Origin: Escherichia coli
Lineage (GTDB): Bacteria; Pseudomonadota; Gammaproteobacteria; Enterobacterales; Enterobacteriaceae
Assembly: GCF_003019035.1 (NCBI RefSeq)
Contig: NZ_CP027447.1
Direction: 5' to 3' (one strand)
Length of the DNA stretch: 64,000 nt
Under the pieces are notes generated by a model. It was not told the DNA's origin, did not search any database, and saw only the letters and a program-made list of their open reading frames with translations. Position numbers and translations under genes: made by a program. Every line of letters begins with the position of its first letter. Position 1 is the first letter of the stretch. Below, piece after piece: positions 1 to 4,057 of the stretch.

Positions 1-2560
1 GTTCCGCGCGCGTCTGGAAAAAGGCGAAGTGCTGGATAACTTGATCCCGGAAGCCTTCGCTGTGGTGCGTGAAGCCAGTAAGCGTGTTTTTGGTATGCGT
101 CACTTCGACGTTCAGTTACTCGGCGGTATGGTTCTTAACGAACGCTGCATCGCCGAAATGCGTACCGGTGAAGGTAAAACCCTGACCGCAACGCTGCCTG
201 CTTACCTGAACGCACTAACCGGTAAAGGCGTGCATGTAGTTACCGTCAACGACTACCTGGCGCAACGTGACGCCGAAAACAACCGTCCGCTGTTTGAATT
301 CCTTGGCCTGACTGTTGGTATCAACCTGCCGGGCATGCCAGCACCGGCAAAGCGTGAAGCTTACGCAGCTGACATCACTTACGGTACGAACAACGAATAC
401 GGCTTTGACTACCTGCGCGACAACATGGCGTTCAGTCCTGAAGAACGTGTACAGCGTAAACTGCACTATGCGCTGGTGGACGAAGTGGACTCCATCCTGA
501 TCGATGAAGCGCGTACACCGCTGATCATTTCCGGCCCGGCAGAAGACAGCTCGGAAATGTATAAACGCGTGAATAAAATTATTCCGCACCTGATCCGTCA
601 GGAAAAAGAAGACTCCGAAACCTTCCAGGGCGAAGGCCACTTCTCGGTGGATGAAAAATCTCGCCAGGTGAACCTGACCGAACGTGGTCTGGTCCTGATT
701 GAAGAACTGCTGGTTAAAGAAGGCATCATGGATGAAGGAGAGTCTCTGTACTCTCCGGCCAACATCATGCTGATGCACCACGTAACGGCGGCGCTGCGCG
801 CTCATGCGCTGTTTACCCGAGACGTCGACTACATCGTTAAAGATGGTGAAGTTATCATCGTTGACGAACACACCGGTCGTACCATGCAGGGGCGTCGCTG
901 GTCCGATGGTCTGCACCAGGCAGTGGAAGCGAAAGAAGGTGTACAGATCCAGAACGAAAACCAGACGCTGGCGTCGATCACCTTCCAGAACTACTTCCGT
1001 CTGTATGAAAAACTGGCGGGGATGACCGGTACTGCTGATACCGAAGCTTTCGAATTCAGCTCCATCTATAAGCTGGATACCGTCGTTGTTCCGACCAACC
1101 GTCCAATGATTCGTAAAGATCTGCCGGACCTGGTCTACATGACTGAAGCGGAAAAAATTCAGGCGATCATTGAAGATATCAAAGAACGTACTGCGAAAGG
1201 CCAGCCGGTGCTGGTGGGTACTATCTCCATCGAAAAATCGGAGCTGGTATCAAACGAACTGACCAAAGCCGGTATTAAGCACAACGTCCTGAACGCCAAA
1301 TTCCACGCCAACGAAGCGGCGATTGTTGCTCAGGCAGGTTATCCGGCAGCGGTGACTATCGCGACCAACATGGCGGGTCGTGGTACCGATATTGTGCTCG
1401 GTGGTAGCTGGCAGGCAGAAGTTGCCGCGCTGGAAAATCCGACCGCAGAGCAAATTGAAAAAATTAAAGCCGACTGGCAGGTACGTCACGATGCGGTACT
1501 GGCAGCAGGTGGCCTGCATATCATCGGTACCGAGCGTCACGAATCCCGTCGTATCGATAACCAGTTGCGCGGTCGTTCTGGTCGTCAGGGGGATGCTGGT
1601 TCTTCCCGTTTCTACCTGTCGATGGAAGATGCGCTGATGCGTATTTTTGCTTCCGACCGAGTATCCGGCATGATGCGTAAACTGGGTATGAAGCCAGGCG
1701 AAGCCATTGAGCACCCGTGGGTGACCAAAGCGATTGCCAACGCCCAGCGTAAAGTTGAAAGCCGTAACTTCGACATTCGTAAGCAACTGCTGGAATATGA
1801 TGATGTGGCTAACGATCAGCGTCGCGCCATTTACTCCCAGCGTAACGAACTGCTGGATGTCAGCGATGTGAGCGAAACCATCAACAGCATTCGTGAAGAT
1901 GTGTTCAAAGCGACCATTGATGCCTACATTCCGCCACAATCGCTGGAAGAAATGTGGGATATTCCGGGACTGCAGGAACGTCTGAAGAACGATTTCGACC
2001 TCGATTTGCCAATTGCCGAGTGGCTGGATAAAGAACCAGAACTGCATGAAGAGACGCTGCGTGAGCGCATTCTGGCGCAGTCCATCGAAGTGTATCAGCG
2101 TAAAGAAGAAGTGGTTGGTGCTGAGATGATGCGTCACTTCGAGAAAGGCGTCATGCTGCAAACGCTTGACTCCCTGTGGAAAGAGCACCTGGCAGCGATG
2201 GACTATCTGCGTCAGGGTATCCACCTGCGTGGCTATGCACAGAAAGATCCGAAGCAGGAATACAAACGTGAATCGTTCTCCATGTTTGCAGCGATGCTGG
2301 AGTCGTTAAAATATGAAGTTATCAGCACGCTGAGCAAAGTTCAGGTACGTATGCCTGAAGAGGTTGAGGAGCTGGAACAACAGCGTCGTATGGAAGCCGA
2401 GCGTTTAGCGCAAATGCAGCAGCTTAGCCATCAGGATGACGACTCTGCAGCTGCAGCTGCACTGGCGGCGCAAACCGGTGAGCGCAAAGTAGGACGTAAC
2501 GATCCTTGCCCGTGCGGTTCTGGTAAAAAATACAAGCAGTGCCATGGTCGCCTGCAATGA
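1..2560 (+). CDS. secA: Preprotein translocase ATPase SecA (5' end truncated by window edge)
   Basis: Open frame continues from position 2 with no start; translated product matches SecA including the C-terminal zinc-binding tail [14 protein letters not shown]; stop at 2558-2560. Confidence 0.97.
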
Positions 2561-2579
2561 AAGCTAACAGTTGAAGTAA

Positions 2580-2606
2580 AAGGCGCAGGATTCTGCGCCT
2601 TTTTTA
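2580..2606 (+). terminator. Intrinsic terminator-like hairpin downstream of secA
   Basis: GC stem ggcgcag / tgcgcc with short loop followed by a 6-T run, 20 nt after the secA stop. Confidence 0.6.
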
Positions 2607-2619
2607 TAGGTTTAAGACA

Positions 2620-3018
2620 ATGAAAAAGCTGCAAATTGCGGTAGGTATTATTCGCAACGAGAACAATGAAATCTTTATAACCCGTCGCGCAGCAGATGCG
2701 CACATGGCGAATAAACTGGAGTTTCCTGGCGGTAAAATTGAAATGAGCGAAACGCCGGAACAGGCGGTGGTGCGTGAACTTCAGGAAGAGGTCGGGATTA
2801 CCCCACAACATTTTTCGCTATTTGAAAAACTGGAATATGAATTCCCGGACAGGCATATAACTCTGTGGTTCTGGCTGGTCGAAAGCTGGGAAGGGGAGCC
2901 GTGGGGTAAAGAAGGGCAACCCGGTGAGTGGATGTCGCTGGTCGGTCTGAATGCCGATGATTTTCCGCCAGCCAATGAACCGGTAATTGCGAAGCTTAAG
3001 CGCGTGTACGTCGGATAG
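2620..3018 (+). CDS. mutT: 8-oxo-dGTP diphosphatase MutT (Nudix hydrolase)
   Basis: 132-aa ORF; Nudix box GGKIEMSETPEQAVVRELQEEVGI; RBS-like aagaca upstream of ATG. Confidence 0.95.
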   Translation: MKKLQIAVGIIRNENNEIFITRRAADAHMANKLEFPGGKIEMSETPEQAVVRELQEEVGITPQHFSLFEKLEYEFPDRHITLWFWLVESWEGEPWGKEGQPGEWMSLVGLNADDFPPANEPVIAKLKRVYVG

Positions 3019-3044
3019 GTGTTTATGCCGCATCCGACATTTGC

Positions 3045-3100
3045 ACACGATGCCTGATGCGACGCTGCCCGCGTCTTATCAGGCCAGCGTCGCATCAGAC
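3045..3100. repeat. REP-like extragenic palindromic element(s)
   Basis: gcctgatgcgacgctg...cgcgtcttatcaggcc plus inverted copy cagcgtcgcatcag; typical enterobacterial REP palindromic unit between mutT and yacG. Confidence 0.7.
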
Positions 3101-3106
3101 AAAATG

Positions 3107-3304
3107 TCACTGCTTTGGCTCTTCGCTCCAGTCATCGCTTTCGGAAAGATCGCCACTGCTGGGGATTCGTTTTTCTTCAGCAGCCCATTCTCCGAGGTCG
3201 ATCAGCTGACAACGTTTGGAGCAAAATGGCCGAAACGGGCTGATTTCACCCCACACCACCGTTTTCCCGCAGGTTGGGCAATTCACCGTAATAGTTTCTG
3301 ACAT
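3107..3304 (-). CDS. yacG: DNA gyrase inhibitor YacG (zinc-finger protein)
   Basis: 65-aa ORF with CPTCGK...CSKRC zinc-ribbon motif. Confidence 0.93.
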
Positions 3305-3313
3305 TTTTACTCC

Positions 3314-4057
3314 TTAGCAACAGGCCAGTTCGAAATCCAGACGTTCCGGTACCTGTCCGTTTTCACTGTCCAGCGGCATAAAACGAATGGCAAAACGGCT
3401 CTTATGACCGGAAATTTGCGGATAAAGCTGTGAATCGAGTGACAGATTCAGGCGCAGCAAGTCGGCATCGCCACCGTTATCCTGATAAAAACCATTCAGG
3501 CTGGTTTGTTTACGGAAGGGGGCCGACTGGCGAATTAAATCCAGCACCATGGTAAGTGCCTGGGTGAGCGGGTTCAGGCTGGCAATCCAGGTTTCTACCT
3601 GGCTGTCGCGCTGCGCCTGGGGTAGATGCAGCCAAATGTGCAATGTAGGTAAATCAAAGCTACAACAGCCGCCTGGGATGCTCAGTCGCTGACGCACCAG
3701 AGCAATCAAACGATCTTCACGCAGAAATTGCCCGATACGCGGCGCGGAAATTAATACGCTCCCCGCCGCTTTTAACTGCTGAATTAATGCTTCAATACGG
3801 CTCTGGTCCACGCCAGGCACGCCAATCCAGGTCTGGAGTTTACGTTGCTGCCGGTCAAGTTCTTTCAACAGCTCAGTGCGGACTTCGCCGCGCTCGAAAA
3901 CATCCAGTAATTCACTGACATTACGGAAGAAATGCAGCGCGCCAGCGTGGTCAACGATGGGTAAATTAACGGTAAGTTGCTGAATCAAAAACTCAATGCG
4001 CAGCCATGTACGCATTTTTTCATTTAGTGGATGTTCAAAAAGGACCTGGGTCTGCAT
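3314..4057 (-). CDS. zapD: Cell division factor ZapD (YacF)
   Basis: 247-aa ORF recognised as ZapD; start overlaps coaE stop (TAATG). Confidence 0.93.

Follow-up and report, generated by a model that had tools for sequence, protein, structure and literature searches.

The hairpins of canonical REPs are preceded by a conserved tetranucleotide, GTAG, in which the E. coli transposase TnpAREP accepts no substitution (PMC8266576). [quoted passage not shown] 2013, PMC3733652). With respect to genomic location, about 60% of REPs sit between convergent genes, where their presence goes together with higher expression of the two neighbors and where a role as bidirectional terminators or decay blocks has been put forward; in the same work, the role of naRNA4 in chromosome compaction is questioned (bioRxiv 10.64898/2026.03.23.713779). 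Moreover, REPs located less than 16 nt from a stop codon are reported to be able to stall ribosomes and to down-regulate translation (Liang et al. 2015, via PMC12306157).

The locus considered here belongs to a stretch of 64,000 nt of E. coli DNA from contig NZ_CP027447.1, referred to below as the window. In the window, secA (29-2560) is followed by mutT (2620-3018, + strand) and then, in convergent orientation, by yacG, zapD and coaE, which corresponds to the arrangement of the K-12 locus (secA-mutT // yacG-zapD-coaE); both the ORFs and the annotated loci show that mutT keeps its conserved place in the genome, with secA upstream and yacG converging on it. According to the ORF list, mutT consists of 132 codons and a TAG stop, and translation of the ORF yields a protein of 132 aa with the C-terminal end ...PVIAKLKRVYVG (KRVYVG). 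The complete genome of strain SCU-301 is 100% identical to the window over 2900-3200 (301 nt), and at this identical locus RefSeq annotates a mutT of 399 nt, whose product is named MutT. Both sources bear out the initial annotation, which had read a 132-aa MutT ending in ...AKLKRVYVG. Its statement that K-12 MutT has 129 aa and other last residues was also correct: mutT of DH5alpha (K-12) measures 390 nt, and the MutT of the crystal and NMR structures in the PDB (1mut and 22 other entries) has 129 aa with the final residues KRL.

In a phmmer search of the PDB, the window protein retrieved 1mut with 286 bits (E 4e-85), residues 1-129 aligning onto 1-129 with only three differences, G43S, R89S and L129V, and this full-length homology to the experimentally characterized E. 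coli protein establishes its membership in the MutT (Nudix) family, with 8-oxo-dGTP diphosphatase and antimutator activity as the predicted functions of the 132-aa form. In other words, the window and K-12 (NudA; PDB 1mut, 3a6s-3a6t) carry the same gene at the same locus, with G43S and R89S as the only differences in residues 1-128. The divergence at the very end consists of L129V and a YVG extension, which brings the stop codon 9 nt further downstream. Upstream of the gene, positions 2536-2605 (+) give a full-length match to the Salmonella sRNA family STnc40 of Rfam (RF02057; 79.4 bits, gathering 45), spanning the last codons of secA and a GC-rich hairpin with a T-run (~2580-2607) just before the mutT start; the source of this match is probably the terminator at the 3′ end of secA or an RNA derived from the 3′-UTR.

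The stop codons of mutT and yacG (3107-3304, - strand, stop codon 3107-3109; annotated as DNA gyrase inhibitor in RefSeq at the identical locus) are separated by 88 nt, almost wholly composed of REP sequence. The array starts at about 3006-3010, overlapping the final codons and the stop of mutT. Its first element, REP1 (3010-3038, +), is a Y-type palindromic unit in the orientation opposite to the published consensus, defined by its fold and by the Rfam structure line, with an outer stem at 3010-3016/3032-3038 and an inner one at 3018-3021/3026-3029. The second, REP2 (3052-3085, +; GCCTGATGCGACGCTGCCCGCGTCTTATCAGGCC), is a Z2-type unit. The opposite orientation of the two units and the 13-nt linker between them correspond to the BIME architecture, and tandem copies of the Y+Z2 unit are found in other strains. 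The complete BIME unit, made of REP1, linker and REP2 (3009-3085, +), matches the Rfam naRNA4 family (RF02564) from end to end (61.2 bits, gathering 59.5, E 3e-10, model positions 1-77/77). naRNA4 is a processed two-hairpin HU-binding RNA from REP325, and RF02564 models one Y+Z2 unit; in the window, the match reflects the shared BIME sequence and not the function of an HU-binding RNA.

When compared with the published REP consensus (GCCGGATGCGGCGTGAACGCCTTATCCGGCCTACGA), REP1 agrees with its reverse complement at 25/32 positions, and REP2 aligns in the opposite orientation. The array folds with z-scores of -4.55 (+ strand) and -7.29 (- strand), none of 200 shuffles being as stable, and REP1 folded alone reaches -19.1 kcal/mol (z = -4.1). 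A partial inverted REP arm, or half-REP (3086-3101, no strand assigned), complementary to the 5′ half of REP2, completes the array. Specifically, 3082-3101 is 90% complementary to 3051-3070, defining an alternative 20-bp hairpin that is most stable on the yacG mRNA strand. On the - strand, a fold with this stem of ~20 bp (3051-3070/3082-3101) has a total of -62.8 kcal/mol (z = -7.3) and competes with the hairpin of REP2 itself; K-12-type right ends (...GGCCTACGTGCGGCATCAGACA) are without most of the pairing between the half-REP and 3051-3070. The initial annotation was thus right in seeing REP-like palindromes here, as folds and naRNA4 match indicate, and wrong in their extent: it had them run from 3045 to 3100 and abut the yacG stop, but the array begins about 40 nt earlier, within mutT, and ends 5 nt from the yacG stop codon.

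With at most 3 mismatches allowed, a search of the 64-kb window for further copies retrieved nothing but the query copy with the Z2 pattern and no copy with the Y pattern. A terminator/promoter scan covering 2500-3400 gave no intrinsic terminator in the mutT-yacG gap, where the REPs have no T-run behind them. The identification of the two units as REPs rests on the full-length naRNA4 match, the match to the published consensus and the fold z-scores. The window array shares with the REP/BIMEs of E. coli the two-hairpin model, the consensus and the location between convergent genes. Unlike a typical REP/BIME, however, it is not strictly extragenic, as the mutT ORF takes in REP1 from its tetranucleotide through its 5′ arm (3006-3016), and both flanking tetranucleotides are degenerate. 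In particular, sequence and consensus match place GTAC (3006-3009, +) where the canonical GTAG is expected, and GCTG is found beside REP2 on the - strand, while K-12-type alleles have GTAG at both sites (comparison including K-12 and Z1002). Homologous in position and sequence, REP1 and REP2 of the window are degenerate copies of bona fide REPs. Because the E. coli REP transposase tolerates no substitution in GTAG (PMC8266576), they are predicted to be immobile relics and not substrates of TnpAREP.

The difference between the two forms of MutT resides in codons 129-130 (3004-3009, +), which alignments show as GTG TAC in the window and as CTG TAG (Leu-stop), or equivalent, in K-12 and other Escherichia. 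From codon 128 into REP1, K-12 reads CGT CTG TAG GTC AGA TAA GGCG... and the window CGC GTG TAC GTC GGA TAG GTG.... The stop codon of K-12-type mutT is the TAG of the REP tetranucleotide, so that these alleles resemble the GTAG-tagged, stop-donating REPs described previously (PMC3733652). In the window, in contrast, this TAG has been lost by mutation and its place is taken by another in-frame stop, within the stem of the REP, the single G to C change from GTAG to GTAC abolishing both the stop codon and the REP motif. The resulting extension, Tyr-Val-Gly (3007-3015, +), takes its last two residues (3010-3015) from the 5′ stem arm of REP1 and is followed by the stop in use, TAG (3016-3018, +), an in-frame back-up stop inside REP1 (GGATAAGG/GGATAGG) that is TAA in many strains.

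This part of the locus was compared in 22 alleles, which are collinear base for base from codon 128 through REP1 and differ by substitutions and by one 1-nt indel inside the REP. The latter is a deletion converting GGATAAGG into GGATAGG, which leaves the back-up stop at its codon position. Likewise, 17 E. coli alleles can be aligned collinearly both at the C-terminus and in the DNA, with substitutions as their only differences, and all the stop-loss alleles examined end at one common back-up stop. The tails YVG, YVE, YAG, YVR and LVR follow the REP stem variants GTCGGA, GTCGAA, GCCGGA and GTCAGA, and because the added residues vary exactly with the REP stem, the MutT tail appears to evolve as REP DNA and not as a constrained protein. 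Taken together, these alignments argue strongly that the 132-aa form of MutT is an ordinary stop-loss polymorphism within a REP, with no rearrangement involved; it is also a common natural allele, as the counts given below show.

On the basis of this reading, the following course of events can be proposed. The mutT frame of Escherichia ends at the 5′ edge of the REP, the ancestral stop at codon 130 being in most strains the TAG of GTAG. In the lineage of this strain, two point substitutions, from CTG TAG to GTG TAC, then replaced Leu129 with Val and the stop with Tyr. As a consequence, ribosomes would read Tyr-Val-Gly, with the last two codons belonging to the 5′ arm of the hairpin stem, and would terminate at the next in-frame stop, the TAG or TAA that the conserved core of the REP, GGATA(A)GG, contains. 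Both stops are thus provided by the REP, the original one and, 9 nt further on, a tandem back-up that limits the effect of stop loss to three additional residues; it is because the REP carries two in-frame stops 9 nt apart that the loss of the first one costs exactly three residues.

To estimate how common each allele is, exact 33-mers that reach to codon 130 or slightly beyond it were counted in 5,426 complete E. coli genomes; as megablast needs a 28-nt exact word, each 33-mer query selects one haplotype. Match length and identity in a spread sample do not reveal the allele class, O157:H7-type records with a 303-nt span carrying the 132-aa allele. The CTG-TAG class (129 aa) accounts for ~3,244 genomes (~1,376 + 1,793 + 75), or 60%, and the GTG/GTA-TAY class (132 aa) for 1,989 (207 + 565 + 937 + 280), or 37%, with ~3% of the genomes outside the classes caught by the queries. 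Among the counts of the longer form, 207 represents the exact CGC GTG TAC 33-mer of the window, 565 includes O157:H7 and 937 includes ST131 EC958. In addition, several exact 132-aa MutT proteins were each seen on 1,000 public contigs or more. The initial annotation would have given up its suggestion of an altered gene end if reference MutT sequences shared the C-terminus of the window, and on this point the outcome is divided: the K-12 reference differs, and about 37% of complete E. coli genomes share the 132-aa class, 207 of them down to the exact 33-mer.

Genomes with a mismatch at the stop on the CTG background number at most 37, and two of them were examined. The first has CTG TAT on a Leu129 background, with the tail LYVG, and may represent a recombinant or an intermediate. 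The second, of K-12-like haplotype, has CTG TTG and the tail LLVR; the change from TAG to TTG is clearly an independent event, in which the stop was lost at least once more. Overall, codon 130 has seen no fewer than two losses of the stop, and perhaps three. In ~2,000 genomes, L129V and the TAG to TAY change are tightly linked, which could reflect a single old haplotype, or could hint at co-selection. A further case is NZ_CP085842.1 (E. coli B95.deltaA), where the 33-mer match ends at ...CTGTA and the base after TA is not G. We take B95.deltaA to be an engineered RF1-free strain with recoded TAG stops; if so, its mutT stop was probably changed to TAA, an artificial change of the REP GTAG.

The polarity of the change can be deduced from the relatives of E. 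coli. E. albertii, E. whittamii, two further Escherichia species and a divergent representative labeled 'E. coli' all have a 129-aa MutT, with TAG or TAA at codon 130 followed directly by GTCGGATAAGG. Because all five carry a stop at this codon, the codon-130 stop is best regarded as ancestral; stop and abutting REP both date far back in Escherichia, which makes the 132-aa form the derived one. The opposite course, in which the 132-aa protein is ancestral and the K-12 form of 129 aa stems from a nonsense mutation of TAY to TAG that by chance made a GTAG, could draw on the presence of the longer allele in EC958, PMV-1, O157:H7 and O145:H28, of which we take the first two to belong to phylogroup B2 and the others to E, both presumably early-branching in E. 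coli. Nevertheless, it is improbable, because the residue-129 codons of the five Escherichia representatives differ (ATG, TTT, CTG, CTT), indicating long persistence of the stop, and because GTAG is the canonical REP tetranucleotide, which makes TAG the expected ancestral state. If the lineages with the 132-aa allele, presumably B2 and E, are indeed basal, ancestral polymorphism or recombination, as opposed to one simple loss, may have a part in the polarity inside E. coli.

Outside Escherichia, the last residues of MutT and its length (129-133 aa) are not conserved. Because of this, the extreme C-terminus of the protein would seem to be tolerant to change, as the comparison suggests. Other Enterobacteriaceae provide further examples of REP-like sequence at the gene end: MutT of Klebsiella spallanzanii ends in ...AKVG*, encoded by the REP-like GTCGGATAA, that of Citrobacter amalonaticus in ...QAG*, encoded by the REP-like GCAGGATAAGG, and among Citrobacter spp. 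(loci L036 and L025) some stop at a TAG adjoining GTAGGCCGGATA. REP-derived C-termini of MutT may thus have arisen repeatedly in this family. An enterobacterial-type mutT was also found in a Firmicutes assembly (QXHL01000193.1, 'Alicyclobacillaceae bacterium I2511'; 80% identity to the query, on a tiny 424-nt contig with a low coverage of 0.83), where it is almost certainly contamination.

As to function, the REP/BIME would serve as a hairpin block in the 3′-UTR shared by the convergent mutT and yacG mRNAs, by analogy with other REPs in this position. REP1 overlaps the mutT stop and the REP-like arm starts 5 nt past the yacG stop, so that both genes have the spacing of the REPs that lie less than 16 nt from a stop codon in the account of Liang et al. 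2015 given in PMC12306157; unlike in those REPs, as described there, the mutT stop lies inside the hairpin and not upstream of it. Being within 16 nt of both stops, the REP/BIME may by the same analogy damp termination or translation of mutT and yacG. The three-residue tail is probably functionally neutral, because it varies freely with the REP and because enterobacterial tails, in proteins of 129-133 aa, have unrelated sequences.

These considerations bear on the idea that the shift of the stop is adaptive, that is, that a stop moved 9 nt into the stem of the REP, or the YVG residues themselves, would tune MutT abundance or activity and hence the mutation rate of a lineage. The loss of the stop at least twice, possibly three times, at one and the same codon speaks for it, and so do the reduced translation reported for REPs inside the 16-nt distance (Liang et al. 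2015, via PMC12306157) and the differences in REP1 stability among alleles (-13.4 to -20.5 kcal/mol). We nonetheless consider it very unlikely. None of the tail residues is conserved (G/E/R, V/A, Y/L), a point against selection acting on the peptide, and the stability of the hairpin varies as much within the 129- and 132-aa classes, whose ranges overlap, as between them. Furthermore, because a terminating ribosome must already melt REP1 in both alleles, the expected difference in stalling is small, and little functional difference between the alleles would be anticipated. Selection on the hairpin structure was addressed through covariation. REP1 is kept in all 22 alleles, with 91.7% of cells paired, and in two of them a pair has changed in a compensatory manner (YL3, C-G to U-A; FCI56, G-C to A-U); the covariation in these 22 alleles is no better than in shuffles (135/500) and provides no independent evidence of selection on structure. 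An extended version of the idea, equally doubtful, is that the REP 'double stop' lets the primary stop be lost repeatedly without harm, and that stop position and REP1 stability might set the MutT level of a lineage via ribosome stalling or trans-translation, so that lineages such as ST131 and O157:H7 would differ heritably from K-12-like strains in their A:T to C:G mutation rates.

The initial annotation had proposed that a REP-associated rearrangement altered the 3′ end of mutT, and the array is in fact structurally polymorphic. In E. coli it contains one BIME unit (intergenic 87-99 nt) or two (201-215 nt), with two distinct right-hand ends, ...GGCCAGCGTCGCATCAGACAAAA and ...GGCCTACGTGCGGCATCAGACAAA, and the extra residues of MutT are REP-encoded, as an insertion, excision or recombination of a REP/BIME replacing the gene end would lead one to expect. 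In other Escherichia species (loci L013, from E. albertii, L015 and L017), at least three tandem BIME units separate mutT from yacG; the BIME copy number at mutT-yacG is evolutionarily labile. None of this variation reaches the gene, however. Either C-terminus occurs with both array lengths and with both right ends, as exemplified by allele L006, with 129 aa and the right end of the window, and by allele L010, with 132 aa and two BIMEs. Because every array combination occurs with either C-terminus, array dynamics are not the source of the C-terminal difference. In addition, REP1 has the same position in other Escherichia species, and the collinear stretch from codon 128 through REP1, in 22/22 alleles, contains no junction, only substitutions, among them those from CTG TAG to GTG TAC, and the 1-nt indel inside the REP. 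A rearrangement is therefore highly improbable and, for the gene end, refuted. Thus, the alignment of mutT 3′ ends and REP array that the initial annotation had put forward as a check supports a structurally variable array and REP-encoded residues, and it leaves the gene end untouched by that variation. Finally, a sequencing or assembly error creating an apparent read-through can be dismissed, since the exact 33-mer with GTG TAC is found in 207 complete genomes, a 301-nt stretch is 100% identical in one genome and the exact protein occurs on 312 public contigs.

We are thus left with the stop-loss polymorphism, a variant that is real and ordinary, as REP termini supplying TAG stops are an already published phenomenon. 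If the two 3′ ends gave different levels of MutT, they would represent a natural variation of mutation rate tied to a REP, of which there is no indication here. Present in about 37% of complete E. coli genomes, the 132-aa MutT is to be considered a legitimate and widespread allele that stems neither from an error nor from a rearrangement. Moreover, the locus offers a clean example of a REP that provides a gene with its stop codon and with an in-frame back-up stop, the value of which is mainly for annotation.
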